Origin: Alphaproteobacteria bacterium
Lineage (GTDB): Bacteria > Pseudomonadota > Alphaproteobacteria > Micavibrionales > Micavibrionaceae
Direction: 5' to 3'
DNA: 64,000 bases
Assembly (NCBI GenBank): GCA_009995045.1
Contig: JAACQG010000010.1
Span: forward strand, 28,025 to 92,024
Each line of letters begins with the position of its first letter. Position 1 is the first letter of the stretch. The translations under genes and the position numbers were made by a program. This document shows positions 4,217-45,723 of this stretch, in pieces. The notes under the pieces are model-generated. The model was not told where the DNA came from. It saw nothing but the letters and a program-made list of their open reading frames with translations, and ran no database searches.

Positions 4217-7200
4217 ATGCTGCATTTCATAAAGAACCCTCTGAGTAATAAAATAAATAAATCAAAGACTTGCCATGATAAACCTCATGCGTCAGATCCC
4301 CTAAACCACCCCTCTTCCCATCGTAAAACCGAACGTGGAAACGTCTTCTTCACCCTCTTCGGCGCGGTAGCCGTCGTCGGCATTCTCGGCGCAGGTATCA
4401 TGCAAACCATGCAAGGCCCGCTCAATACAATGGTGCAGGTCAATTTACGCGAACGCGCTAAAAGCGAAATGTCCATTCAATCAAAACTCGCCCTGCTTGA
4501 AGCAACCAATCAGGCAAATAGCGGCGACTGTGATTCTGATGGTTTTGTAGAACCCTTAGGGCATTCTGGAGCGATCGCTGGCTTAACAGGTGGCGGCTCG
4601 TTACCGACAGGCACAAAAACGGACCCTTGGGGCAATGAATATGGCTATTGTGCATGGGATGCGGGAGATACATCAGGCACATGTGGCGGCGCTTATTCCA
4701 CTTTGCTAGACGGTGACGCACCAACAGAAGCTAACAACTATTCAGTAATCGCAATCATATCCGCAGGGCCGGACGGTATTTTCCAAACAACATGTCAAGA
4801 TCATCCAACTCTTGAAACACGTGGCGGCGACGATCTTGTCGAAAACTACACATACGAAACAGCCGTTGCAGGATCAGGCGGCCTATGGAATATTAAATCA
4901 GGAACGCCAACATCCGCCGAAATCAACAAGGATGTGGATTTAAGAACCGAAAGCGATGTCTTCGGCTCGACCAGAAGCCCGCAGCTCATCCTCGGCGCAT
5001 CCTCAATCGTCCTCCCAACAGATACAACAGCTGGCATGACATGTAACAGCGCCAACCAAAACATCTTACGCGTGAATACAGCAACCGACCCCGACAGCTT
5101 GGAATTATGCCTATTAGTAGCACCTAGCACATACGGATGGAGATCTGTCGCCGCGGGTGCAACGGCATCCGCGCTTGCCGATGACGACACAACCGTAACC
5201 ACCGACGATTCCGCACCATCAATCGTATTTGCCGTAAACGGAACCGATGAACTCACAATAACCCCATCAAAACTTGAAGCAGGCTCACTAGACATTGAAA
5301 CAACAGGGACTCTAAATGCAGGCGCGGCAACATTCGGCGGCAATACAGCCGTCACCGGAACATTCGATGTCAACGGCGCAACAACATTAGACGCTCTCAC
5401 CGCATCCGGAAACACCACAATCAACGGCGCTTTTGAGGCAACAAGCGGCGCCACAATCAGCGGCGGCAGCGATCCTTCTCTCTCCGTCACGGGCAATATC
5501 GGCGCGGTCGATGTTGACCTGTCCGGCGACCTCAACCTCGGCAGCACAGAATCCGTGAACTGGGGCGATGCTTCCGTAAACATCACAGGCGACGCAACAG
5601 CAGACTCCCTCGTCTTCGCCGCAAACACTGCCAATTTCGACGCCGCAACAACAACCTTCGACGGCGCGGTATCAATCGCAAACACCGTAACCCCAACCGC
5701 CGATCCCGCACTAGATGTAACAGGAAACGTAGACGTCAGCGGTGATTTAGATGTCGACGGCTCCCTCAATCTCGGCGGCGATCAACTCTCCCTCGGCACA
5801 TTAACGGAAAACAATGCAGGCCGAATTTTAATCGGTCAATACAACGGTACAGACGCAACCACTGCATATTTCAGCTCTGAAACCGTTGGCGGCGATGCGT
5901 CACTTGGTAAAGACGGCGTGCTAACAATTATCAACGGCGCAATCGACGAGCCAAAAATGGACATCAGCAACGGCCCAACTGGCGGTGATTGTTTGAAATA
6001 TTTAAGCGGCGTCTTAACATGGCAAGCCTGTTCTGGCGGCGGCGGCGGTGATGGCGTTGGAACAGATGGCCTGCCCGACGTTCTGGCAAACGATAACAGC
6101 GCAAATAGCCTCAAAATCACAGACCTCGCAGACCCAACAGCCAACCAAGACGCCGCCACCAAAAAATACGTTGACGACTCTCTCGGCTCACTCGCCTCTG
6201 ACCGCATCCAAGATTTGGACAACAACACCTTCATCGAAGTCGACACAACCGATGATGGTTTAACGGACTCTATTGTTTTCACCACCAATGGCACGACGCG
6301 TTTGACCTTTGATAAGGTGGGCAATGCAGATTATAATGGGGGAGCAGGAGCATTCTATTTCTCCCGTAATTCAGGCGCGAATACTGCCCCGATTGTTATT
6401 CAAAACGCCTTCGGCGGTGGCGCTGGTATTACTTTTGGAAATGGGGGTAATGTCTGGGCACAGGTGCTAGGTTTACCAACGGATGACCTAGTCTTCAATA
6501 CTGATGTGACCGAACGCGCACGCTTTACTGCCGCTGGGGATCTACTGATTGGCACGAACACTGCGGCCGGATCAGCCATTTTACAAATGGACTCCACAAG
6601 TAAAGGTATTCTTATTCCACGCATGACTCTAGCCGAACGTAATGCTATCGGAACTCCCGCAAACGGTCTTGTCGTCTTCGCAACCGATGCCGGCGATGCC
6701 GGCCTCCTCCAATTCTACGACGGCACGCAATGGGTTGATGTCGGCGGCGGCGGCGCGAATACGGGCGGCCTCTGGACTGATCTCGGCGGCGACCGCATCC
6801 ATTACGGCGACGCAGGCACCGAACAAGTCGGCATCGGCACAGATAACCCCGTCACAACCCTCGACGTCAATGGCGGCATCCGTGTCGGCTCCGTCAGCGG
6901 CGCAGACGCCCCAACATACCTCTCCCTCGCTAGCCTCAGCGACACCGACGTATCAAGCGCGTCCGATGGACAATATCTGACCTACAACACGGGAAGCGGC
7001 AATTGGGAAGCTCAAAGCCTTACAGGCGCCGCAGTACCCGATGGCTCTCTCGACTGGGATAAATTCGTCGATGCCATGACCCTAGACACCACCACCACCA
7101 TCGACATGGACACAAATTCCGCCAACCTCAATTTCGACAGCGACACATTCGTAATCGACAGCGCGGATGATAGAATTGGAATTGGAACAAGCTCCCCTGC

Positions 7201-10200
7201 ACATGAGCTTCATGTCATAGGTAATATAGCAATCCCGAGAGGAAATACATATGGTGTAAACCATTTAGGAACCTACACAGATTTAATCAGCCTCGATTCA
7301 GCAAATAATCGAGTTTATGGCTCTTTAGGTTCAAACACTAGGAGTCGCATGCTAATATTAAACAATGGGCAAATGAACTTGCAAACAAATGCTCAAGATA
7401 TAATATTTAGTAGTAAAGCATTAAACACAGAAAGTGCTCGCATAACGGGCAACGGTAATATACTTGTTGGCACTACAACAGAAGACACATCCGCTTTATT
7501 AAACTTAAATAGTACAACATCCGGCTTCCTCACCCCCCGCATGAACAATACGCAACGCGATGCTATTGCATCACCTGCAACCTCATTGTTGATTTTCTCG
7601 GTCACCGATAACGAATATCAATACAACGCCGGAACACCCGCAAGTCCGAATTGGGTGCCGATGAGCGGCTCTGCCTGTGCCGATCCGACCCCCGATGCGT
7701 TTGATTTTTCAAACCTCGCAAACCAAACAATATCAAGCGTTGTCGCATCCAACATTGTTCAAATCACGGGCGTAAGCTGCGCGGTAACCGTCTCCTCCTC
7801 CGGCGATGCTTCCACCCAATTACAAAGCTGTAGCGACGCAACATGTTCAACCGTTATCCAAGGATGGTCATCAAGCGTACAAATCAATAATGGCGAATAT
7901 GTTCAAGCCCGCCTCACAACATCGTCAACCCCCGGCGCGACAAGCACAACAACCATCACAATCGGTAGCGCATCTGACTCATGGTCGGTATCAACATCCG
8001 GCGGTGATTGTAGCGTCGCCAACCCGATACCTGGAACCGTCTGTGCCGACGGCACCGTTTATGCGGGCAAAACGGTCGACGGAAACGTTAAAATGTATGT
8101 CACACGCTGTGACGAAGGAATGTCATGGAACGGCTCTGTATGCACAGGAACACGCGTATACCCCAAGTGGGCCACCAATGGCAATACTTCGGATGACAGC
8201 GGCGGCGGCGGTACAGTATCCGGTTTCACCAACACTTATACACTGAATGCGCTGGTTAACACCAACTCCCCCTTCCCAATGGCTGATCGATGCGCAACAC
8301 TCACCGCAAACGGCCATTCGGATTGGTACCTACCAGCAACACAGGAATATGTTACAATACTTGGCAATAAAGACGCGATCGGTTATTTCAACAATACTGC
8401 AACATATTTTGCATCCAACCAATCTAATGTCGTTTCTGCACTCGCTATAAGAGCGAGTGATCAGACATCTATTGCCGGAGCAAAAATTAATACGTCAGAG
8501 GTGCGCTGCGCCCGTAAAGACGGCGCCTTGCCCCCCGCTGGAACACCGGGCGGTACGGATGGACATGTCCAATATAACGAAGGCGGCAATTTAAACGGCA
8601 ATGCAAACTTCGTTTGGGATTACACCAACAATAACCTCGGCATCGGCACAGATACTCCTGCCGCTGCACTAGACGTTACGGGCAACACAGGAGAGGCGAC
8701 TATTATCGCCCGCGCTACTGACATTTCCGTGCCCTTCTTCCAGGCTTATGGAGATCTTGATGGCAATCCGAATGCCCCATTTATGAATATATCAGTAGTG
8801 AATAGTACGTCAGATCGTATTGTAGTTGATTTTGAACAAGAACGTGCCTGGCTGCAATCTCCAGAATTTCGCTTTAACTATTTAGGTAGTGATAGTAATA
8901 GCGGATCACAATTCCTTTTCACCGGAAATGCAGCAGGAAGCCGATTAATTGCAAGTGATAGAGCGCAGTCTATGGTTCAGGTTTCGGGTGGTTTCGAGCA
9001 AACCGGCACCGCCGCAATGGATGCTTTCATAATCAATCCAAGCATTTACACTACCGGAGATGGTACAACAGGTTCAGGAAATAATTTGCTGCGCGTTGCT
9101 AATACGGGTGTTGACCAGTTTGTTATCGATACTGACGGCAAGGTCGGCATTGGCACAAATGCACCGGACGCATCAGCAAGTTTAGATATTGCATCCACCA
9201 GCAGAGGCTTCCTCACCCCCCGCATGACCACAACCGAACGCGACGCCATCGCTACCCCCGCAACAGGCCTCATGGTCTATAACACCACATCAAACACATT
9301 CGATTATTATGACGGCGCCGCATGGGCATCCTTCGCATCCAGCGCAGGCACAGCAAACGCCCTCTCCGATACGGGCGACGGCAATACGTCAATCGACGTT
9401 GACACAGATAACGCCGACACCAACAACACAACGGTCTTCACCAATGCCGGTACACAAAGCATGATTATTGATGCCACAGGGGATGTCGGGATCGGCACAA
9501 TGGCAGACCCTTCAGAGGTACTCCACGTCGCAAGAACAGGACAAGACCCGACGATAAGAATTCAAAACGATGGAAGCGCCAATTCCACCGCCATCGCAAT
9601 TACAGATACTATAGCTAACAGAAATTCAACAATTCGATGGACTACTGGTGGCAACAGTGAAAGAGCAAAGATAAGTGCGTACATGGGCTCGTCTGGGGCA
9701 TCACCCAATATGTCCCTTTCAACTGGGTTTAATACTCAAAAAACATCTTTGGCCCTTAAATCCCCAGTAATTGACACTCAAAATATAGCGGCAGCGTCCA
9801 TAAGCTATACAACCGATTTACCAACATCTGGCAATGACACAGGCTTGTTAATCAGTAAAACAGATACAGCCTCTAATGGGATATCACTTCTCATCAACGC
9901 TCAGACAGACAGCACAACGCAATTCAGTGTTGATGATTCAGGCATTGGGTATTTCGCTGGTAATGTCGGCATCGGCAACGCTTCTCCCGATGTTGCCCTC
10001 GACGTCACCGGCGACATCGAATACACGGGAACCCTCACCGACGTATCCGACCGCCGCTTAAAAGACAACATCACCCCGCTCAACAAACACGGCGCGTTGA
10101 TTGACCGCATCAACCAAATCGAAACCGTCAGCTTTGTTATGAAAGACGACGCTAAAAAACGCACAGAATTCGGTGTAATCGCCCAACAATTAGAAACCAT

Positions 10201-36376: not shown

Positions 36377-37240
36377 ATGTCAATAAATATATTTGTTATA
36401 GCTGGCCCCACCGCCAGCGGGAAATCCGCCAAAGCGTTAGAGCTTGCGCGCAAACATAACGGCGTCATCATCAATTGCGACTCTCTGCAAATCTATGACG
36501 GCCTGCACATCCTCACCGCGCATCCATCCAAAGAAGAACAAGAAGAAATCCCGCACTTGCTTTACGGTGCGCTCCACCCAAACGAGGTCTGCAGCGCAGG
36601 AAATTGGCGAGAGATCGTAGAACCCATCATCACGCGAACCATCGAAAACGGGCAAACCCCAATCATTTGCGGCGGTACAGGTTTATACATCAAAGCCCTC
36701 ATGGAAGGATTATCCCCGATGCCCGATATCCCTGATGAGGTGCGCGATCGCGTCGTCGCAAAATATGAAAGCATCGGCGCAGATGCGTTTTATGCCGAGC
36801 TTATGACGCGCGACCCAATCATGGCAGATCGCTTCCACGCCAACCATAAAGCCCGCATCATCCGCGCAATGGAAGTTTTAGAGGCCACAGGAAAGTCCCT
36901 AGCCGAATGGCAAGAGCTTCCCCGCGCCGCGCCGCCAAGCCATTGGAATTTCGAGCTACACAAAGTCTTGCCCGAGCGTGAAATCCTCTATGACCGTTGC
37001 AATCGCCGCTTTGAATGGATGCTTGAACATGGCGCATTGGACGAGGTTATAGCCTTCGACAAACGCCTGACCTCGGGCGAAGTCAACGAGGGCGTCCCAC
37101 TCTGCAAAGCCTTAGGGTTCAAAGAACTGCGTGCCTATCTCAACAATGAGATGACATTACAAGACGCCATCACAAAAGCCCAAACCATCACAAGAAACTA
37201 CGCTAAACGCCAAATGACATGGCTCAGGAACCAGCTTTAA
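36377..37240 (+). CDS. miaA: tRNA dimethylallyltransferase
   Basis: P-loop GPTASGKSA, then DS.QIY....I.TA.P...E....PH.L. Confidence 0.93.
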   Translation: MSINIFVIAGPTASGKSAKALELARKHNGVIINCDSLQIYDGLHILTAHPSKEEQEEIPHLLYGALHPNEVCSAGNWREIVEPIITRTIENGQTPIICGGTGLYIKALMEGLSPMPDIPDEVRDRVVAKYESIGADAFYAELMTRDPIMADRFHANHKARIIRAMEVLEATGKSLAEWQELPRAAPPSHWNFELHKVLPEREILYDRCNRRFEWMLEHGALDEVIAFDKRLTSGEVNEGVPLCKALGFKELRAYLNNEMTLQDAITKAQTITRNYAKRQMTWLRNQL

Positions 37241-37307
37241 GGGTTGTTTAAAAAACATAAAAACACATACAATAACGATGTTAAATAACACTCTCAGATG
37301 AGGAAAA

Positions 37308-37787
37308 ATGGAAGACACCCAATTAACAACCGCAGATAAACACAAAAAAATTGAACAAAAAATTATCGATATGGCATACATTAATAAAGGCCGTATCAAC
37401 AGATTAGATTACTTTTTCACTGGCGTTGGTTTAAACGCCATACAAAAACTTTTTGAATATGAAACTGACATTCAGTTTGTTCAATGGCTGTTTATTGCTT
37501 TAAGCCTGTTCTTCACCTACATAGGGATATCCGTTACAGCAAAAAGATTTCGAGATATTGGTGTCAGTGGATGGTGGTGTGTACCGCATACTATCGCTTT
37601 AACTGTAGCTTATGTCTTTGCCACACAAGCCATAGGCTATACTGATACAAAAATATATTGGGCTACTGGCCTCATATCCATGATCGTACTTGGCTTGGGC
37701 TTGTCACTATGGCCGAGAGAAAAGCGAGACAACAAATATGGAGAATATGAAGAATGGGGCATCATGGACACTCGAAAATTGAAATAA
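37308..37787 (+). CDS. DUF805 family inner-membrane protein
   Basis: GRINRLDYFF, multiple TM helices and AKRFRDIGVSGWW. Confidence 0.8.
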   Translation: MEDTQLTTADKHKKIEQKIIDMAYINKGRINRLDYFFTGVGLNAIQKLFEYETDIQFVQWLFIALSLFFTYIGISVTAKRFRDIGVSGWWCVPHTIALTVAYVFATQAIGYTDTKIYWATGLISMIVLGLGLSLWPREKRDNKYGEYEEWGIMDTRKLK

Positions 37788-37990
37788 TATTTCTTTTTAA
37801 TCATTTTTACGCAACTTTATAGCTTTATAGCTTGACCAATACGCAACAAAGTGATTATATCAATCATAGAGACGATGCAAATAAGCATTGCAGATTAAGT
37901 AGACGGTAATAGAAAAACGCCATAAGGCATAAAGCCATGGCAAGTGTGTAAAAAACTGCTAAATAATAGGCCCCTAGGGCTAGAATATAA

Positions 37991-38057
37991 AGCGCGGTTC
38001 AGGTATTTTGCCAAAGGTTCTCTCATAAAGAGCCCAAGTCAAAAATCCTGACGCGCT
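37991..38057 (+). promoter_or_regulatory. long imperfect hairpin in the ilvB leader region (possible attenuator)
   Basis: AGCGCGGTTCAGGTATTTTG (37991-38010) pairs with CAAAAATCCTGACGCGCT (38040-38057), about 16 bp with bulges and a 29-nt loop, followed by TTTAAGGTTTTT. It lies 30-45 nt upstream of the ilvB start. Confidence 0.2.
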
Positions 38058-38084: not shown

Positions 38085-39896
38085 ATGAACGAGAATGACA
38101 TGAGCACAACAAACGCAAAACAAGACGCAAATAAAACAACACCAGCAAAAACCCAACAAATGACGGGTGCGGAAATGGTGATCAAAGCATTGATCGAACA
38201 AGGCGTTGAAGTCATTTTCGGCTACCCTGGTGGCGCGGTGTTGCCCATCTATGACGAAATTTTCAAAAATCAGGACAAAATCAAACACGTCCTCGTTCGC
38301 CAAGAAGGCGGCGCTTTACATGCCGCCGAAGGCTACGCGCGCTCCACCGGCAAGGTTGGCTGCGCCCTTGTAACATCCGGCCCCGGCGCGACAAACGCGG
38401 TGACGGGATTAACCGATGCATTGATGGATTCAATCCCGCTTGTTTGTATCACCGGACAGGTTCCAACATTCATGATCGGAACAGACGCCTTCCAAGAGGC
38501 GGACACAACCGGAATCACGCGCCCTTGTACAAAACATAACTACCTTGCCGATGATATCGAAGAATTGGCCGACATCATGCATGAAAGCTTCCACGTTGCG
38601 CGCTCTGGACGCCCTGGCCCCGTTGTCATTGACATCCCCAAAGACGTACAATTTCAAAAAGGCACGTATAAAAAGGCAAAACCAACAGCCGCGCAAAGCT
38701 ACCAGCCACGCGTGACCCCCGATATGGATGCCATCGAAGCCGCCGTAGAATTAATGGCGAACGCAAAACGCCCTGTATTTTATACAGGCGGCGGCGTGAT
38801 CAATGCGGGCGCAGAGGCCTCAACACTCCTGCGTGAATTGGTACGCGAAACCGGATACCCGATCACATCCACATTGATGGGGTTAGGGGCATATCCCGCC
38901 GAGGATAAGCAATGGCTTGGTATGCTAGGCATGCACGGTACATTCGAAGCCAATTGGTCGATGCATGATTGTGATGTCATGATCAATATCGGTGCACGCT
39001 TTGATGACCGCGTAACAGGACGCACCGATGCATTCTCCCCCAATTCGACAAAGATCCATGTTGATATCGACCCCAGTTCGATCAACAAAAACATCCGCAT
39101 TGATATTCCAATTGTCGCCGATGCAAAACTCGCCCTAGAAGCCATGATCAGCGTATGGAAAAAACGCAAATACAAAGCCGACCAAGACGCGCTTAAAAAA
39201 TGGTGGAGCCAGATCGAAGAATGGCGCGCCAAAAACTGCCTTGCCTATAAACAAGAAGGGCAGATCATTAAACCTCAATACGCGCTTGAGCGTTTGCGTC
39301 ATTACATGGCGAAAGACCCGCGCGAAGGATATATCACAACCGAAGTTGGCCAACACCAAATGTGGGCCGCGCAATTCCTGCCGTTTAACGAACCAAATCG
39401 CTGGATGACATCAGGCGGCCTCGGCACAATGGGCTATGGCCTTCCCGCTGCAATCGGCACGCAAATCGCTCATCCCGATGCCTTGGTTGTCGATGTTGCG
39501 GGTGAAGCTTCTATTTTGATGAATATTCAGGAAATGTCATGCGCGGTACAATATAAAACCCCCGTCAAAATCTTCATCCTGAACAACCAATGGATGGGCA
39601 TGGTTCGTCAATGGCAAGAACTCCTCCACGGCGAGCGCTATTCCAGCTCATATTCCGAAAGCCTACCCGATTTCGTTAAACTTGCCGAAGCCTATGGCGG
39701 CGTTGGCCTGCGCGCGGAAACCGTTGACGAGCTTGACGGTGTGATCGAGGAAATGATGGCAACCGATCGCGTAACAATCGTCGATGTCTGCGTGGCGCAA
39801 AAGGAAAACTGCTTCCCGATGATCCCATCAGGCAAAGCCCATAACGAGATGATCCTCTCCCCCGACGCGGCCATGTTCGACAAGACGTTGGTTTAA
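38085..39896 (+). CDS. ilvB: acetolactate synthase (AHAS) large subunit, biosynthetic type (ilvB/ilvI)
   Basis: GAEMVIKALIEQGVEVIFGYPGGAVLPIYD, GPGATN, and the ThDP motif GGLGTMGYGLPAAIG...NNQ.MGMV. An alternative start is ATG 38100. Confidence 0.95.
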   Translation: MNENDMSTTNAKQDANKTTPAKTQQMTGAEMVIKALIEQGVEVIFGYPGGAVLPIYDEIFKNQDKIKHVLVRQEGGALHAAEGYARSTGKVGCALVTSGPGATNAVTGLTDALMDSIPLVCITGQVPTFMIGTDAFQEADTTGITRPCTKHNYLADDIEELADIMHESFHVARSGRPGPVVIDIPKDVQFQKGTYKKAKPTAAQSYQPRVTPDMDAIEAAVELMANAKRPVFYTGGGVINAGAEASTLLRELVRETGYPITSTLMGLGAYPAEDKQWLGMLGMHGTFEANWSMHDCDVMINIGARFDDRVTGRTDAFSPNSTKIHVDIDPSSINKNIRIDIPIVADAKLALEAMISVWKKRKYKADQDALKKWWSQIEEWRAKNCLAYKQEGQIIKPQYALERLRHYMAKDPREGYITTEVGQHQMWAAQFLPFNEPNRWMTSGGLGTMGYGLPAAIGTQIAHPDALVVDVAGEASILMNIQEMSCAVQYKTPVKIFILNNQWMGMVRQWQELLHGERYSSSYSESLPDFVKLAEAYGGVGLRAETVDELDGVIEEMMATDRVTIVDVCVAQKENCFPMIPSGKAHNEMILSPDAAMFDKTLV

Positions 39897-40210
39897 TATT
39901 CTTGAATGACAATGATAACCCGCTGTCGTGAGACAGCTTTATCATTGTCCATTCGAACAAGCGATACCTCTAGCCCGTTTGAAAGATTGGACACCATCTT
40001 TGCATCCAGAACAATGCCTAGATCCTGCGGGCTTCCATCTTCATGGATAAGCGATAATGTTTTTGCATCAACATCAAAGTCAATCCACTGTATATCTGAA
40101 CGCAGTTTTTGATCATGTAATATAAGAATATCCCCTGTCGAATTGGAAACAATCGAGCAGCGCATTTCATTATTTAACGGGATATTTTCAACGAAACCAT
40201 CAGCACTCAT
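39893..40210 (-). CDS. hypothetical small protein (105 aa), antisense between ilvB and ilvN
   Basis: The ORF lies 21 nt downstream of the 746-aa ORF on the same strand. Its stop overlaps the ilvB stop (TTAA at 39893-39896). No recognisable motif. AT-rich by eye. Confidence 0.5.
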   Translation of the reverse strand: MSADGFVENIPLNNEMRCSIVSNSTGDILILHDQKLRSDIQWIDFDVDAKTLSLIHEDGSPQDLGIVLDAKMVSNLSNGLEVSLVRMDNDKAVSRQRVIIVIQEY

Positions 40211-40231
40211 AAAATAATTTAAACACTTAAA

Positions 40232-42472
40232 TTATGATGGCGCAACAGATGGTGTCGTGGAAGGAGGCGTTGTATGCACAATTTCAGGCCCAACAACAAG
40301 CGAATCACGAATCATAAGCCCGTCCCCGGCAGCAGCGCCCAAAAGCTTAACATCACCAGCCGCGGCGGCATCTGGCCCAGTAAAGTTACCATCATCTGTT
40401 AAATCAACTCCAGCCATTTCATGTGACGCTCCATCTTGATGTGACATGATACGGGAGATAATATAAGCGTTAAGCATCGCCCCGTTATCAGCACTCAAAG
40501 CCTCAGTCGCCGCGAACATAGCATTACCAATCTCAATTTGCTCATCTAAAGGTAAATTCATATAATCACGCGTCAGATCCGCAACAAGCGGATTATTAGC
40601 ATCTAGAGTGTCATCAACCATCGCGATCGACCGCACAAAATCTAGCCTGTCATCAACCGACATCACATTTAAGAACGCTTCGCTCCCCTCCGGTGAGCGC
40701 ATGATTGATCCCATTTCTTCAACCAACGAGGATTTCATGCTGGCAATAGCCTGCTCTCTTGCCTCTATCTGACCCCGAATATCATCAGGGATGGTCATAC
40801 TTATATAAGGAGATTGAAAAACCATCAGATCATTTTCTGCCATTTCCATGCCTGCCTTTAAGGCAATAGCATAATGCAAAATATCCGGCTGTCCTTCTGG
40901 TGATCTTGGAAGCTCATCGGTTGCCGCTAATATAGCTGTGTGTGAAGCCGTATGCCCACCGAACATACTTCGCGCATGCATTTGATATATATCTTCAGGA
41001 ATATCCAATAACGTTGAAATTCGCGTTAATTCGCCACGCGCTCTCAACTCCACCCCAACAGTAAACATTGCCGATGGTATAATAAACTGATCCGCCATCC
41101 CTACCGATGCATCCGCAACCTGCGCGCCTGTCGTTTCCGCATGAAATTTCATTAAAGCATCATATTGAAGCTCCGTAATATCTCCGGCCGCTAGCTGCTG
41201 CTCTGTTAATGCCAACATTGAACTCCCCTCATAAGCAATAACACCAGCGCTTGCTGCATTAGCCATAGTTCCAACAACTGCGGCACCACCAAAAAGACGA
41301 GCTGCCGCACTCACTTTACCAAGGCTTTTCGGTCTTGCTTCACCCACAATATTATCTGCATGGGCAGCCATATGACTTATAGCAGCACGCGTTTCGGGTC
41401 CTTTTGAGAACAAGTCTGTACGGCTATTTAAAGTTTCCGCAAACTCTCTCATACTCGCCGTATTGTCTACCAAAAGCGAGCGAAGCTTGGGGTCCTGTAT
41501 ATCCAAATGATCGATAATCGTCATTTTAATCAATTCATCATTCCGCCCAAAAGGCGACCAACTATTTTGGTATAGCTTCATAGTGTCTAAAAGCTCAGGA
41601 TATTCTTGTCCCATACGCGCCAGATAAGGAATATCCGCATGATAAGCACCTTGGTTAATACCCTGAAGCCCTTTAATATCGCTCAAAAGACGCGCACGAT
41701 CAGGAAAAGCATCATGCGCACTAAGAACGATGTCATGCTGTTTTGATGCAAGCATCTCCTGCACAACCTCAGGGGATGTTAAGTGCCGCAGATTATCATT
41801 TGTTAAAGCAGTCACATCGGGGAAACGTGAACTATCTATCGCAACAGCAAACTCCCTGTCGACAGACCCCGTATCTGTCTGCACAGAGAAAACACCTGTT
41901 AAAAATGGTTTTCCACCTGAAAATTCAATATCATGAACAACCATGTCACCAGATGATCCATTGACGTCAAACCCTTCAATCAATGTAGGACCATCACCGC
42001 TATAATCTTGAATACGTATAGCTTGCCCCTCTACAAGGTTGGCTGATTTGGGGCCTTCTGGTTCAGGGGCCGTTTCAATTTTCGGCGGCGCAGCTTCAGT
42101 AGTAATCTTATTTTTAACCGCAGCGCGCACATCACCAAAAGTTTCGCCATCGCTCACAACGATCGTATCTGGTCTCTGCGTTAAAATGTTATCAACAATC
42201 TCAGCCATGTGAGGCTTTGCTATTGCAATTTTGCTATTGGTAGTAGAACCAGATGCCATACCTGAAATCTTTTCAATTTCAGCCGCATCTAGCTCTGCAA
42301 AGAACTCTCTAAAAACCTCAGAAGTATGATCGTTAATATTGCCGCTTATGTATGCGCGCCCATCTTCTACAACAATTCCGTTCACTAAAACGTCAACGCT
42401 TTGACCATTAAAAACCACATCCTCCAGCTCATGCAAAGCCCCTATTGAAGCGACGATATCTAATACTGGCAT
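40232..42472 (-). CDS. large hypothetical protein (746 aa), antisense between ilvB and ilvN
   Basis: Uninterrupted 2.2-kb ORF. No signal peptide, a Pro-rich linker (EAAPPKIETAPEPEGPKS), a Gly/Ala-rich hydrophobic stretch AAARLFGGAAVVGTMANAASAGVIAY (about 41233-41312) and a Pro/Thr/Ser C-terminal tail. No family recognised. Confidence 0.7.
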   Translation of the reverse strand: MPVLDIVASIGALHELEDVVFNGQSVDVLVNGIVVEDGRAYISGNINDHTSEVFREFFAELDAAEIEKISGMASGSTTNSKIAIAKPHMAEIVDNILTQRPDTIVVSDGETFGDVRAAVKNKITTEAAPPKIETAPEPEGPKSANLVEGQAIRIQDYSGDGPTLIEGFDVNGSSGDMVVHDIEFSGGKPFLTGVFSVQTDTGSVDREFAVAIDSSRFPDVTALTNDNLRHLTSPEVVQEMLASKQHDIVLSAHDAFPDRARLLSDIKGLQGINQGAYHADIPYLARMGQEYPELLDTMKLYQNSWSPFGRNDELIKMTIIDHLDIQDPKLRSLLVDNTASMREFAETLNSRTDLFSKGPETRAAISHMAAHADNIVGEARPKSLGKVSAAARLFGGAAVVGTMANAASAGVIAYEGSSMLALTEQQLAAGDITELQYDALMKFHAETTGAQVADASVGMADQFIIPSAMFTVGVELRARGELTRISTLLDIPEDIYQMHARSMFGGHTASHTAILAATDELPRSPEGQPDILHYAIALKAGMEMAENDLMVFQSPYISMTIPDDIRGQIEAREQAIASMKSSLVEEMGSIMRSPEGSEAFLNVMSVDDRLDFVRSIAMVDDTLDANNPLVADLTRDYMNLPLDEQIEIGNAMFAATEALSADNGAMLNAYIISRIMSHQDGASHEMAGVDLTDDGNFTGPDAAAAGDVKLLGAAAGDGLMIRDSLVVGPEIVHTTPPSTTPSVAPS

Positions 42473-42611
42473 AAATTTCCCTATCTTTACTCGATATAAT
42501 TTTACGAGAAAAATCCTAAAATAAGCTCAACATTAGCCATAATTTATCTAAAATTTTATGGAATGTATTTTTCCGCTACACACTGCGCGTAAACTCGGTT
42601 ATAAATTTCCT

Positions 42612-43181
42612 ATGAACAAACCAGCGAAAAAAGACAAAAAGTCAAAATCCGTTTATGCCCCCGGCCCGACGGATCAAACGATTGAAACCCATACTTTGGC
42701 GATCCTCGTCCATAACGAGCCGGGCGTGCTTGCGCGTGTCATCGGCCTGTTTACCGGGCGCGGCTATAATATCGAAAGCCTGACGGTTGCAGAAACCGAT
42801 CACGTCGAGCACACATCCCGCATCACAATCGTATCCAGCGGAACCCCCGAAGTGATCGAACAAATCAAAGCACAATTAAGCCAGATCGTCCCCGTCAAGC
42901 GCGTGCGCGACCTCACCACCTATGGCCCGCACATCAACCGCGAATTGGCATTGGTCAAGGTCGAAGGAAAAGGCGAGCAACGCATCGAAGCCCTGCGCAT
43001 CGCCGATGTGTTCCGCGCCAATCCTGTTGATTCAACACTAGAATCGTTCGTCTTCGAAATCACTGGCGACACAAGCAAAGTTGACGCATTCATCAATCTC
43101 ATGAAACCACTCGGTCTGTCCGATGTTAGCCGTACCGGCGTCGCCGCAATTTCGCGCGGCATATTTGTTGATGCCATCTAG
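42612..43181 (+). CDS. ilvN: acetolactate synthase small (regulatory) subunit (ilvN/ilvH)
   Basis: ACT domain HTLAILVHNEPGVLARVIGLFTGRGYNIESLTV...T......SRITIV plus the C-terminal AHAS small-subunit domain. The ORF opens at 42558, but ATG 42612 (MNKPAKK...) is the more plausible start. Confidence 0.92.
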   Translation: MNKPAKKDKKSKSVYAPGPTDQTIETHTLAILVHNEPGVLARVIGLFTGRGYNIESLTVAETDHVEHTSRITIVSSGTPEVIEQIKAQLSQIVPVKRVRDLTTYGPHINRELALVKVEGKGEQRIEALRIADVFRANPVDSTLESFVFEITGDTSKVDAFINLMKPLGLSDVSRTGVAAISRGIFVDAI

Positions 43182-43183
43182 CC

Positions 43184-43945
43184 ATGGGGAAATTGGAATT
43201 CAAAGGCTCACAAGGCCACACCCTCTCCGCACGGCTCGATAGGCCAGAGGGCGAACCCGTTGCCTACGCACTCTTTGCGCATTGCTTTACCTGCGGCAAA
43301 GACCTCACCCCCGCAAGCCGCATCGTACAGGCGCTCAACGAAGATGGCATCGCCGTCCTGCGCTTTGATTTCACAGGGCTCGGCCAAAGCGGCGGCGAAT
43401 TCTCAGACACCAATTTCAGCTCAAATGTTGAAGATTTGCGCTACGCCGTTCAATATATGCGCGACACCCTTCAAGCGCCGAGCATGATGATCGGCCATTC
43501 CTTGGGCGGAACCGCCGTGCTCGTCGCGGCAAAAGACATCCCCGAAGTCGGGGCAGTCGTCACAATCGGCGCGCCGTCAAACACCACCAATGTGATGAAA
43601 CAATTCGGTTGCGACGTCGATAAAATCGAAGATGAAGGTGAAGCCGACGTGCTACTGGCCGGTCGCCCATTTACGATCAAAAAACAATTCATCGACGATA
43701 TCAAATCGCAAAACATCCAAGACGCCGTCCACAACCTAAAAAAACCCCTCCTCGTATGCCACAGCCCGATTGACGACACCGTGCCTATCGCACACGCACG
43801 CGACATCTATAGCTGGGCGATGCACCCAAAAAGCTTTATCTCCCTCAACACACACGATCATCTGCTATTCGCAGAAGGTGCCGCCGAATACGTCGCCAGA
43901 TGCGTCGCCGCATGGGCCAGCGCATATCTGCCAAGCCCCAAATAA
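43184..43945 (+). CDS. alpha/beta hydrolase
   Basis: FAHCFTCGKD, RFDFTGLGQSGG, the nucleophile elbow IGHSLGG and a late D...H. Starts 2 nt after ilvN. Confidence 0.8.
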   Translation: MGKLEFKGSQGHTLSARLDRPEGEPVAYALFAHCFTCGKDLTPASRIVQALNEDGIAVLRFDFTGLGQSGGEFSDTNFSSNVEDLRYAVQYMRDTLQAPSMMIGHSLGGTAVLVAAKDIPEVGAVVTIGAPSNTTNVMKQFGCDVDKIEDEGEADVLLAGRPFTIKKQFIDDIKSQNIQDAVHNLKKPLLVCHSPIDDTVPIAHARDIYSWAMHPKSFISLNTHDHLLFAEGAAEYVARCVAAWASAYLPSPK

Positions 43946-44005
43946 AACATTGAAAGAATATGAAAATATAGATAATCTCCCAAAATTCATGAGGGAGACG
44001 AAGAT

Positions 44006-45280
44006 ATGCAAAAATTATTTCTGCTTATAGCGGGCACGATTATCGCAATAGCCGCAAACACACATACAGCAAACGCAAGCGATACACTCAAAACACTCTT
44101 AAACACTGATGGCAATTACGAAATTATCCCTGGTTTTATAGATACCAACGCAACCCTATCGAACAAAATAACCGATCTACAAGAACACGTTACCGATAAA
44201 TCAGTTGTCATGCTTAAGGCCCGTGAAAATGGGGATTTAAAACCATATCGCCTCTATCTTGGTGCGCGTATTGTCGGCACATACATTGCTGAACGCACGA
44301 ACACAGCAGGAAAATTCCCAATTCTATCGCGCCTCCCACCAACACATACAAAAGGTACAAGTGACACGTACAGCGTTATTAACGACTTCACCCCGCACGC
44401 AATTGCAACCCTGCCTTGGGTCACATTATTTGCGCAAGGCGAATACACCGAATTAGCGTATACGGGGCAAGATCGTTGGAAGCTACGAAAATATGGCGTG
44501 ACAATAGGCGATTTAGACAAATTCCCTCTTTACGCAGCCATCGCAAAAAAATCAGTCAATTTCGGTAATTTCTCAAGCTACGGCCCATTCACCCACACAC
44601 ATAGCGCACATTATTTTTGGGCGCAAACGGATGAACCATTATTAGAAGTCGGATACGCCAAGGACGGCACAATGCTTGCCGCAAGCCTGATCAAAAACGA
44701 TCGCGGCTTACGCGTTTTAAATTCGCCGAAAAATGACGATAAGTACGAAAACTTCGCGCTTAACGCCTCCCATCGCATTGAATTTAATGATGATTACAAC
44801 GTGAAAATCGGCGCGGGCTTCCTGCGCGGCACAATCTATGACAGCTCAATCGCACACCACCCGCCAACAACAGGCACAAATGACAGATCATGGAACGGCG
44901 CGGTTAACGCCAATATTGAAGCTAAACTAAATAAATTTGACGTTATGGCCGAATACACACAAACCGTCGAAGACTGGCCCGCAACAGACAGCCACGTGAG
45001 CGCATTAACCCTGCAAGGACGCTACAACGACACAATCCTACACCTACCCACAAAATATAGCCTATCGTATAGCCAAGGCATCCAAGGCGATAGCGATGAA
45101 GAATGGTTTGATATGCAACAAGGCGTCGCAGGCGTTGAAATAACTATAAATCCACATTTAAGCATTGGTGCAGAATATGTCGCGAGCGCAGGATTTGTTC
45201 CCTTAATCGTGCCAAAACTTGCCGCTGATAACGGCGTTGTATCGCACACCGGCATCGTCGGACTTAAAATCAGCTTTTAA
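44006..45280 (+). CDS. putative outer-membrane beta-barrel protein (porin-like)
   Basis: Signal peptide MQKLFLLIAGTIIAIAANTHTANA, alternating amphipathic segments rich in Tyr/Gly/Asn, and the C-terminal ...GIVGLKISF with a terminal Phe. Confidence 0.6.
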   Translation: MQKLFLLIAGTIIAIAANTHTANASDTLKTLLNTDGNYEIIPGFIDTNATLSNKITDLQEHVTDKSVVMLKARENGDLKPYRLYLGARIVGTYIAERTNTAGKFPILSRLPPTHTKGTSDTYSVINDFTPHAIATLPWVTLFAQGEYTELAYTGQDRWKLRKYGVTIGDLDKFPLYAAIAKKSVNFGNFSSYGPFTHTHSAHYFWAQTDEPLLEVGYAKDGTMLAASLIKNDRGLRVLNSPKNDDKYENFALNASHRIEFNDDYNVKIGAGFLRGTIYDSSIAHHPPTTGTNDRSWNGAVNANIEAKLNKFDVMAEYTQTVEDWPATDSHVSALTLQGRYNDTILHLPTKYSLSYSQGIQGDSDEEWFDMQQGVAGVEITINPHLSIGAEYVASAGFVPLIVPKLAADNGVVSHTGIVGLKISF

Positions 45281-45723
45281 GACAAAGAAGCATATACAAG
45301 CGGTTCTTCCCCTGCTTCAAGAGCGTTCAATTCCGCAAGGGTTGGCTCGGCCCACGTGCCTTGCTCGGGTGAACCTTTTCGTGATGAAATGCGCGCATGC
45401 TGTGCGAATATTTCTGTCATGGAGGCGTCGTCTGAATATTTTTGTAAAAACGCACCGATTTTTGAAATATTCTCAGGAGATATATATCTGAGACCTGCGT
45501 TTTTCGCTGCGTTCGCTGTCTCTTGTTTGGTTTGGCCCAATTCACCCACATAATAGGCAACCTGACCGGGCTCAGTGTTCGTTTGTTGAGCGATCTCAGC
45601 TTCAATATCTTCAATCGTCAAACCTTCCGAGACACCAAATAGCTTCATTTTACCTTTTTCTGTCGGTATAAAAACAACATATATTTGCGCATCTTGTGCG
45701 GATTCAACTGTGGAAGTACTCAT
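45277..45723 (-). CDS. hypothetical protein (148 aa)
   Basis: ORF only. Its stop overlaps the 44006-45280 gene by 4 nt, convergently. No recognisable motif. Confidence 0.45.
   Translation of the reverse strand: MSTSTVESAQDAQIYVVFIPTEKGKMKLFGVSEGLTIEDIEAEIAQQTNTEPGQVAYYVGELGQTKQETANAAKNAGLRYISPENISKIGAFLQKYSDDASMTEIFAQHARISSRKGSPEQGTWAEPTLAELNALEAGEEPLVYASLS

Follow-up and report, generated by a model that had tools for sequence, protein, structure and literature searches.

A gene pair inserted between ilvB and ilvN in a Micavibrionaceae genome encodes a member of an undescribed, lineage-restricted family of modular proteins and a small partner

Introduction

What has come to lie between the two subunit genes of acetohydroxyacid synthase (AHAS) in this member of the Micavibrionaceae, and what might the intervening genes do? 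The window (the whole 64,000-nucleotide stretch that was analyzed, taken from contig C28 of a 1.89-Mb assembly in 32 contigs) carries ilvB, encoding the large subunit, and ilvN, encoding the small subunit, with two minus-strand open reading frames (ORFs) of 746 and 105 aa between them, hereafter big746 and small105. A preliminary description of the locus, made from its sequence alone, proposed that an AT-rich accessory module, possibly an effector/chaperone or toxin/immunity pair, had been inserted into the AHAS operon. We report that the pair is accessory cargo of a variable slot, that big746 represents a family in which changing N-terminal heads are joined to a conserved C-terminal module, and that small105 is a partner associated with this module. 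Micavibrio is an epibiotic predator that is thought to deliver proteins into its prey, and we know of no account of the molecular basis of prey attack by Micavibrio-type epibiotic predators.

Results

A 2.7-kb insertion with exact borders

The flanking genes were confirmed as AHAS genes. ilvB (38085-39896, plus strand; 603 aa) matches TPP_enzyme_N, TPP_enzyme_M and TPP_enzyme_C (PF02776, PF00205 and PF02775; E 2e-38 to 5e-51) and forms the left border of the slot; ilvN (42609-43181, plus strand), which matches ACT_AHAS_ss and ALS_ss_C (PF22629 and PF10369), forms the right. The listed ilvN ORF opens at 42558, and alignment to the closest relative, G011, places the true ATG at 42609 (MNKPAKK...). 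G011 has a 40-bp spacer between genes that are 90% (ilvB) and 88% (ilvN) identical to those of the window. Because homology to G011 breaks off exactly at the ilvB stop (39896) and picks up at 42609-42610, where ilvN starts, the 2,712-bp block 39897-42608 is an insertion, which bears out the earlier claim of about 2.7 kb of inserted DNA with two ORFs on the opposite strand.

small105 (39893-40210, minus strand) ends in a stop codon that overlaps the ilvB stop by 4 nt. A 21-nt AT-rich spacer (40211-40231, minus strand), lacking a clear Shine-Dalgarno sequence, separates it from big746 (40232-42472, minus strand), whose ATG has an AGGGA motif 6 nt upstream; the arrangement is as first described. 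Judged from their sequences, both ORFs are real genes, because full-length, stop-free homologs occur in other assemblies (41-48% identity for the large protein, 38-57% for the small), and the two are likely co-transcribed. The remaining 136 bp (42473-42608), an AT-rich divergent intergenic region with no homology to the ilvB-ilvN spacer of G011, would have to carry the big746 promoter together with an own promoter for ilvN, from which that gene is presumably driven. The sole sigma-70-like match to this region in a promoter/terminator scan, at 42527-42554 (plus strand), was at chance frequency.

The AT-richness ascribed to the insert holds against the ilv genes (44-46% GC versus 51-53%) and not against the genome (47.3%). 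At 45.6% GC, big746 stands at the 25th percentile of genes and the ilv genes at the 81st-89th; the contrast comes mostly from the GC-rich ilv genes, and big746 is within the genome range. The GC content at third codon positions (GC3) of big746 is 36.8%, the 6th percentile, and the GC content of small105 is 39.6%. A mobile element or genomic island was considered and rejected: no integrase-like ORF lies within 39897-42608, and its borders are without integrase, tRNA or flanking repeats other than short chance ones.

The ilvB-ilvN junction is a variable slot

The preliminary description had taken a split AHAS operon to be remarkable, a view that did not survive comparison. We surveyed 20 species representatives of the genus, 16 of which have ilvB and ilvN on one contig. 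The gap between the two genes measures 0.65-3.65 kb in 14 of these 16, the window's genome among them; within the genus the genes are contiguous only in G010 and G011, as they are in the outgroups G023 and G036, and in G003 and G015 no ilvB lies within ~10 kb upstream of ilvN. The cargo differs from genome to genome, is unrelated and stands in either orientation, and includes SSF symporters, PLP-dependent decarboxylases (one with a SET domain), a GNAT-CN_hydrolase fusion, MipA, a Na/Ca exchanger and orphans. Outside the lineage, the gap from ilvB/ilvI to ilvN/ilvH exceeds 600 bp (0.66-2.6 kb) in 24 of 62 (39%) sampled alphaproteobacterial loci, most of them from Rhodobacterales (Jannaschia and Tropicimonas among them). 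A split AHAS operon is no anomaly in Alphaproteobacteria, and genes between the AHAS subunits seem widespread in the class. The split pair is common, and the junction acts as a variable slot, not as a damaged operon.

The big746/small105 cassette was found at this site in none of the 20 species representatives, and as a unit the large/small pair is met again in further genomes and at further loci. It is thus not clade-wide, and the accessory nature first proposed for it stands: our robust conclusion is that the cassette is accessory cargo in a variable slot of a conserved miaA-ilvB-ilvN-ilvC backbone. ilvB and ilvN now lie 2.7 kb apart with antisense coding sequence between them. This uncoupling is evidently tolerated: at least 4 diverged lineages have kept the split by this cassette, and in most of the genus the junction is occupied by other cargo.

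When 5.8 billion protein clusters were searched by word index, only 3 close homologs of big746 came up, at 41-45% identity. All three (loci L009, L010 and L011), metagenomic and divergent, lie between ilvB and ilvN, antisense and adjoining ilvN. The slot of L009 holds the homolog, a small gene (55% identity) and a nucleoside hydrolase; that of L010 holds the homolog without a small gene; and that of L011 holds the homolog, a luxI/luxR pair and an unrelated 101-aa gene. Across these loci the flanking genes are 79-87% (ilvB) and 76-92% (ilvN) identical to those of the window, as against 41-45% for the large protein, and on this sequence comparison big746 evolves very fast, far faster than its neighbors, with its frame intact. 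A 554-aa relative of the big746 head region also converges on the end of ilvB in G020 (L003).

Several observations concern these loci and the rest of the backbone. The pair in L011 (2812-4632) is of the luxR/luxI quorum-sensing type (Autoind_bind plus GerE, and Autoind_synth), and the 101-aa ORF lies in the same stretch. In L009, ilvB (5937-7775) appears broken into 3-4 ORFs; the contig name indicates ~4x coverage, and sequencing errors are as likely an explanation as a true pseudogene. In the window, a DUF805 membrane-protein gene (37308-37787) sits between miaA and ilvB, within a stretch of 36-39% GC (37200-38000); the miaA-ilvB distance varies among relatives (~0.4-1.7 kb), and this junction looks like a further variable slot of the same backbone. 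The ilvN-ilvC junction (43184-45723) holds an alpha/beta-hydrolase gene (43184-43945), a gene for a 424-aa protein resembling outer-membrane beta-barrels (44006-45280) and an antisense 148-aa orphan (45277-45723), whereas several relatives have ilvC immediately after ilvN, or with the hydrolase alone in between.

big746 joins a variable head to a conserved C-terminal module

Neither big746 nor small105 belongs to a Pfam, NCBIfam, PADLOC or PHROGs family, all matches being at chance level: big746 has no Pfam match at E<=0.1, and neither protein matches a PADLOC family at E<=1. No homology to a housekeeping protein was found. As first noted, no signal peptide is visible by eye in big746, the N-terminus being acidic within 20 residues. 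Foldseek searches with AlphaFold 2 (AF2) models left the orphan status of both proteins unchanged at E<=0.001; the big746 model that found nothing in the PDB is a low-confidence one, with a whole-protein predicted local distance difference test (pLDDT) score of 58.

Distant members of the family, identified by BLASTP and profile searches, match big746 only at aa ~370-741. The profile search returned 102 matches among 1.84 billion cluster representatives, 88 of them below 1e-10, and big746 itself scores E 5e-277 against its own family profile. Nearly all 102 matches cover profile positions ~340-690 in proteins whose total lengths range from 137 to 1,823 aa. The shared part is a C-terminal module of ~330 residues (aa ~380-710; 40343-41335, minus strand), predicted to be all-helical (AF2 helices at 420-680, pLDDT 70-85), with a basic patch, a Gly-rich hydrophobic helix and the motifs S-M-F-G, GQPE-LH, DDRLEFVR-LA and LN-YI. 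Comparison of the module with the PDB by sequence profile (alignment A3) gave chance matches only, and Foldseek likewise gave no match; patterns from the A3 family alignment, searched in genome contigs, gave pattern matches and no relatives. Among genomes of the window's taxonomic family the big746 protein family occurs in 11 of 37, with 1-3 copies each, and in none of 24 genomes from the other families of the order.

The hydrophobic helix of big746 (aa 393-416; 41225-41296, minus strand), the Gly/Ala-rich segment of the preliminary description, follows the basic patch and is moderately hydrophobic, with a Kyte-Doolittle score over a 19-residue window of 1.37. The family median is 1.55 over 86 members, and 39 of the 86 score at least 1.6. 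Lys plus Arg number on average 3.15 in the 15 residues before the helix versus 1.37 after it (76 versus 3 members; Wilcoxon p=7e-14) and acidic residues show the opposite asymmetry, in members that are related and hence not independent observations. A conserved asymmetry of this kind is the positive-inside signature that classically marks an N-in/C-out membrane helix.

In contrast to the module, the heads change from member to member. Pfam scans of 90 family members recognized domains in a minority: Zeta_toxin in 4; GGDEF, DUF3990 and RelA_SpoT in 2 each; and PP2C (E 1e-28), EDR1/CTR1 peptidase-like, Transglut_core, Pkinase, N_Asn_amidohyd/CheD and AAA_33 in 1 each. None of the 90 carries HisKA, MCP or EAL, and RelE and HicA heads were likewise looked for in the scanned members and not found. 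Where coordinates were checked (P0012, P0058 and P0053), the head lies N-terminal to the module; in P0012 the Zeta domain spans 104-247 and the module 361-667, and in P0058 GGDEF spans 469-560 and the module 657-1042.

big746 is acidic (isoelectric point, pI, 4.46) and cysteine-free, as are 26 of the 251 ORFs of at least 500 aa in the window's genome with respect to cysteine; the median cysteine content of its family is 0%. Its head consists of a duplicated beta-rich unit, a Pro-rich linker and a helical region, for which no known relatives were found. Repeat 1 (aa 5-60; 42293-42460, minus strand) is modeled as strands (pLDDT ~70-80) in a predicted beta-sandwich-like arrangement, and repeat 2 (aa 163-211; 41840-41986, minus strand), also modeled as strands (pLDDT ~65-75), is strongly conserved in four close homologs (DLVVHDIEF...KPFLTG). 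The duplication is visible by BLASTP, in which residues 157-250 of P0003 match 16-119 of big746 at E 1.5e-5. The linker (aa 126-149; 42026-42097, minus strand) is disordered, with AF2 pLDDT <50 at 127-149, and the tail of the protein is rich in Pro, Thr and Ser; linker, hydrophobic segment and tail are thus all present as originally read. Taken together, these findings robustly define an undescribed, lineage-restricted, hypervariable and modular family, in which variable heads of cytoplasm type are combined with a conserved, putatively membrane-active C-terminal module. Literature searches on Micavibrio secretion systems and on its effectors, toxins and immunity turned up no account of the family.

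small105 follows the module

small105 is acidic (pI 4.45), with homologs at 38-57% identity. Its AF2 model (pLDDT 83.7) has seven strands and one helix and finds no fold match in the PDB or BFVD at E<=0.001 by Foldseek; its family alignment (A2), compared with the PDB by sequence profile, gave chance matches only. A gene of the small family lies directly downstream of module proteins with differing heads in the window, L009, G015, G008, G018 and G009, where the module proteins of the four named genomes measure 799, 603, 1,010 and 442 aa, respectively, and at the locus of the Zeta-headed P0012 (L180). There the downstream 105-aa gene matches the small-family profile at E 1.7e-43, and another gene, of 74 aa, lies upstream. 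Because homologs sit downstream of module proteins whose heads differ, the small protein goes, by gene order, with the module and not with the head. Next to the pair in G015 is a 324-aa ORF (L004 8-982; G015:C16) that by eye looks like the C-terminal portion of a primase-like protein from a phage or plasmid, a resemblance that would point to a mobile setting for this copy of the pair.

Distant paralogs of small105 are core genes. Of the 37 genomes of the taxonomic family, 36 have at least one copy, usually two in tandem downstream of a giant, fast-evolving protein. Some of the proteins outside the big746 family that precede small genes have glycine-zipper helices, such as a 1,591-aa protein in G014, and some do not; BLASTP found no sequence feature shared among them. 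We conclude that small105 is a module-associated partner drawn from an undescribed core family, which we regard as robust.

Two loci are worth recording here. In the window's own genome (G000:C24:85040-89894; L092 4041-8895), a fast-evolving 1,296-aa orphan adjoining lepA is followed by distant small105 paralogs in tandem, first one of 136 aa and then one of 122 aa; the orphan is acidic and cysteine-free, has moderately hydrophobic Gly-rich segments and can be recognized in just 3 further genomes of the genus, whereas nearly all genomes of the family have the tandem pair. In L060 (1688-2621), a related metagenomic contig, a 189-aa protein with an EndoU_bacteria toxin domain is followed by a 107-aa ORF outside the small105 family, and the same contig also has a 364-aa orphan followed by a small105 homolog.

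Comparison with known systems

Polymorphic toxins offer one comparison, within the framework of Zhang, Aravind et al. (2012). Like the polymorphic toxins CdiA, Rhs, MafB and LXG, the big746 family combines one conserved module with many interchangeable enzymatic domains, among them Zeta-toxin-, deamidase-, peptidase- and RelA/SpoT-like heads; small genes are adjacent, turnover is rapid, distribution is patchy and the genomic slots are variable. In contrast to these toxins, the polarity of big746 is inverted, with the variable part N-terminal and the conserved part C-terminal; Pfam scans of the family found no trafficking domain (PAAR, RHS, TPS, LXG or MafB-N); and the partner is conserved across heads (38-57%) instead of co-varying with the toxin domain as an immunity protein would.

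X-Tfe effectors carry a C-terminal XVIPCD and are secreted by the bacteria-killing type IV secretion system (T4SS) of Xanthomonadales. They too join variable N-terminal enzymes to a conserved C-terminal domain, in a role of inter-bacterial antagonism. Unlike XVIPCD, however, the module of big746 has no Pfam match, measures ~330 aa and contains a hydrophobic helix, and VirB4 is lacking from 5 family-bearing genomes. The VirB4 marker (PF03135) does occur with the family more often than without it (6 of 11 family-bearing versus 4 of 26 other genomes; Fisher p=0.022). Dependence of the family on a T4SS was nonetheless rejected, the association being weak and the five genomes counter-examples. VirB4 is present in 10 of the 37 genomes of the taxonomic family, and the window's own genome has a VirB4-type ATPase (G000:C6:751-1365; 804-aa frame), which is probably part of a conjugative element.

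The system of prePAAR effectors and Eag (DUF1795) chaperones (Tse6-EagT6) resembles the cassette: a small, beta-rich cytoplasmic partner is encoded beside a large protein bearing Gly-rich helices, and this partner is tied to the hydrophobic part of the large protein and not to its toxin part. It differs in that the type VI secretion system (T6SS) is absent here, the helix is in the C-terminal half of big746, small105 has no DUF1795 match, and EagT6 surfaces only at E 1.6, for the low-confidence big746 model, without a significant fold match. Delivery by a T6SS was rejected on the marker TssC (PF05943), which is found in none of 21 genomes, the window's own included.

Class I chaperones of type III secretion systems (T3SS; CesT and SicP) are similar in that a small (~100 aa) acidic protein adjoins a large, acidic, cysteine-free and fast-evolving one. 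In contrast to them, small105 is mostly beta, has no CesT/YbjN-type match and is encoded downstream. A Micavibrio genome was reported to be without T3SS and T4SS (PMC3189940), and the present genome itself was not scanned for T3SS.

In proteins of the PknB/PstP type, a cytoplasmic enzyme is connected by a single transmembrane helix to an extracytoplasmic domain. The big746 family has the same order of domains: a head of cytoplasm type, then a single helix whose N-flank is positive-inside, then a C-terminal domain. Some of its heads are PP2C and kinase domains. Unlike PASTA, its module is new and helical, and the family includes toxin-type heads and is accessory and hypervariable. Membership among the RTX substrates of type I secretion systems (T1SS) was not supported, big746 having no HemolysinCabind or other Pfam match; its acidic, cysteine-free composition is compatible with a non-RTX T1SS signal, which the methods used could not recognize. 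No known anti-phage defense system was matched by either protein in PADLOC.

Discussion

What, then, might the cassette do? We tentatively favor, at less than even confidence, a conflict-type effector with a module for membrane insertion or delivery and a chaperone-like partner specific to that module. The module would serve as a device for membrane insertion or delivery by which the head is placed or carried across a membrane, and the large protein would act in conflict between bacteria, with prey or competitors as the most likely targets. small105 would be a module-specific cytoplasmic partner that chaperones or holds the basic/hydrophobic segment, and not an immunity protein for the head. 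We infer these roles (insertion, export or delivery, chaperoning and conflict) because several heads are of toxin type, turnover is extreme, distribution is patchy, the family is confined to a predatory lineage, helix hydrophobicity is intermediate, and the size, charge and gene position of small105 are like those of a secretion chaperone. Intermediate helix hydrophobicity is reportedly typical of exported membrane-targeting effectors. A more specific version, in which the module is a self-contained, Micavibrionaceae-specific helical glycine-zipper device that inserts into the prey or junctional membrane and takes the diverse enzymatic heads across without T3SS, T4SS or T6SS, and the small beta-rich proteins are a new class of dedicated holders that keep the cargo soluble inside the predator, strikes us as improbable.

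A number of observations weigh against a conflict effector. Many of the Pfam matches to heads are weak, near or below the curated cut-offs, and several heads (GGDEF, PP2C, kinase) are ordinary signaling domains; the head of the window's own member has no recognizable activity, and the AF2 model of big746 as a whole is poor and unreliable. The cassette is linked neither to a secretion signal nor to dedicated secretion machinery: TssC is absent from the genomes searched, and VirB4 is missing from five near-complete family-bearing genomes (G015, G018, G024, G043 and G050). Only ~7 of the 24 family loci inspected have the small partner next to the large gene, and small-family genes also follow unrelated acidic orphan proteins, some of them without a hydrophobic helix. 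Furthermore, the positive-inside pattern around the helix is what would be expected of a resident N-in/C-out inner-membrane protein. This last point underlies the main alternative, which we consider possible though rather doubtful, namely a resident inner-membrane sensor-effector, with the module as signal-anchor plus periplasmic helical sensor or scaffold, the head as cytoplasmic output serving signaling or, for toxin-like heads, abortive-infection-type defense, and small105 as a cytoplasmic regulator or cap. The charge asymmetry of the helix, the lack of a signal peptide by eye in big746, heads that are all cytoplasm-acting, nucleotide-using enzymes (some of signaling type), the lack of any secretion system consistently present with the family and the location in a variable slot, a frequent setting for defense genes, are all consistent with a resident protein. 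Such a role is harder to reconcile with the absence of PADLOC matches, with restriction to one bacterial family when defense systems usually spread widely, with the lack of HisKA, MCP and EAL among the scanned members, with a degree of turnover and patchiness unusual for housekeeping signaling, and with a big746 helix that is only moderately hydrophobic.

The classical toxin/immunity pair raised by the preliminary description is unlikely, as the small protein is conserved while heads change and is absent from most family loci. In a variant of this idea, the module itself would be a pore-forming glycine-zipper toxin and small105 its cognate immunity protein. Although the family has kept the glycine-rich helix throughout, the small gene sits just downstream and varies together with the module instead of the head, and the cassette is accessory and fast-evolving, we consider this variant quite improbable: ~17 of the 24 family loci are without an adjacent small gene, the same-slot close homologs L010 and L011 included; small105 is predicted to be soluble and cytoplasmic, whereas immunity proteins against pore-formers are usually membrane-located; and the small family also follows unrelated proteins. 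It is very unlikely that the insert is merely recent foreign or selfish DNA, or two unconnected orphan ORFs, whose chief effect is to disrupt co-transcription of ilvB and ilvN. The low GC3 of big746, the low GC content of the small gene, the absence of the cassette from the closest species representative (G011) and the lack of known domains in either protein would be compatible with such an origin; however, overall GC lies within the genome range, the borders show no repeats, integrase or tRNA, the family is confined to this lineage among the relatives searched, relatives carry copies in the same slot that have diverged to 41-48% identity with frames intact, and the pair recurs at other loci.

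The miaA-ilvB-ilvN-ilvC backbone, as a set of variable slots, is a handy place to seek accessory genes in this lineage. Neither the module nor its partner is represented in Pfam, NCBIfam, PADLOC, PHROGs or the PDB, and the modeled fold of small105 may itself be new. Together, the big746 family and its core small partners constitute a testable candidate for part of the predator's effector repertoire or for an envelope sensor system. If the module is indeed a delivery device, they would provide a first molecular handle on effector injection by epibiotic 'leeching' predators.

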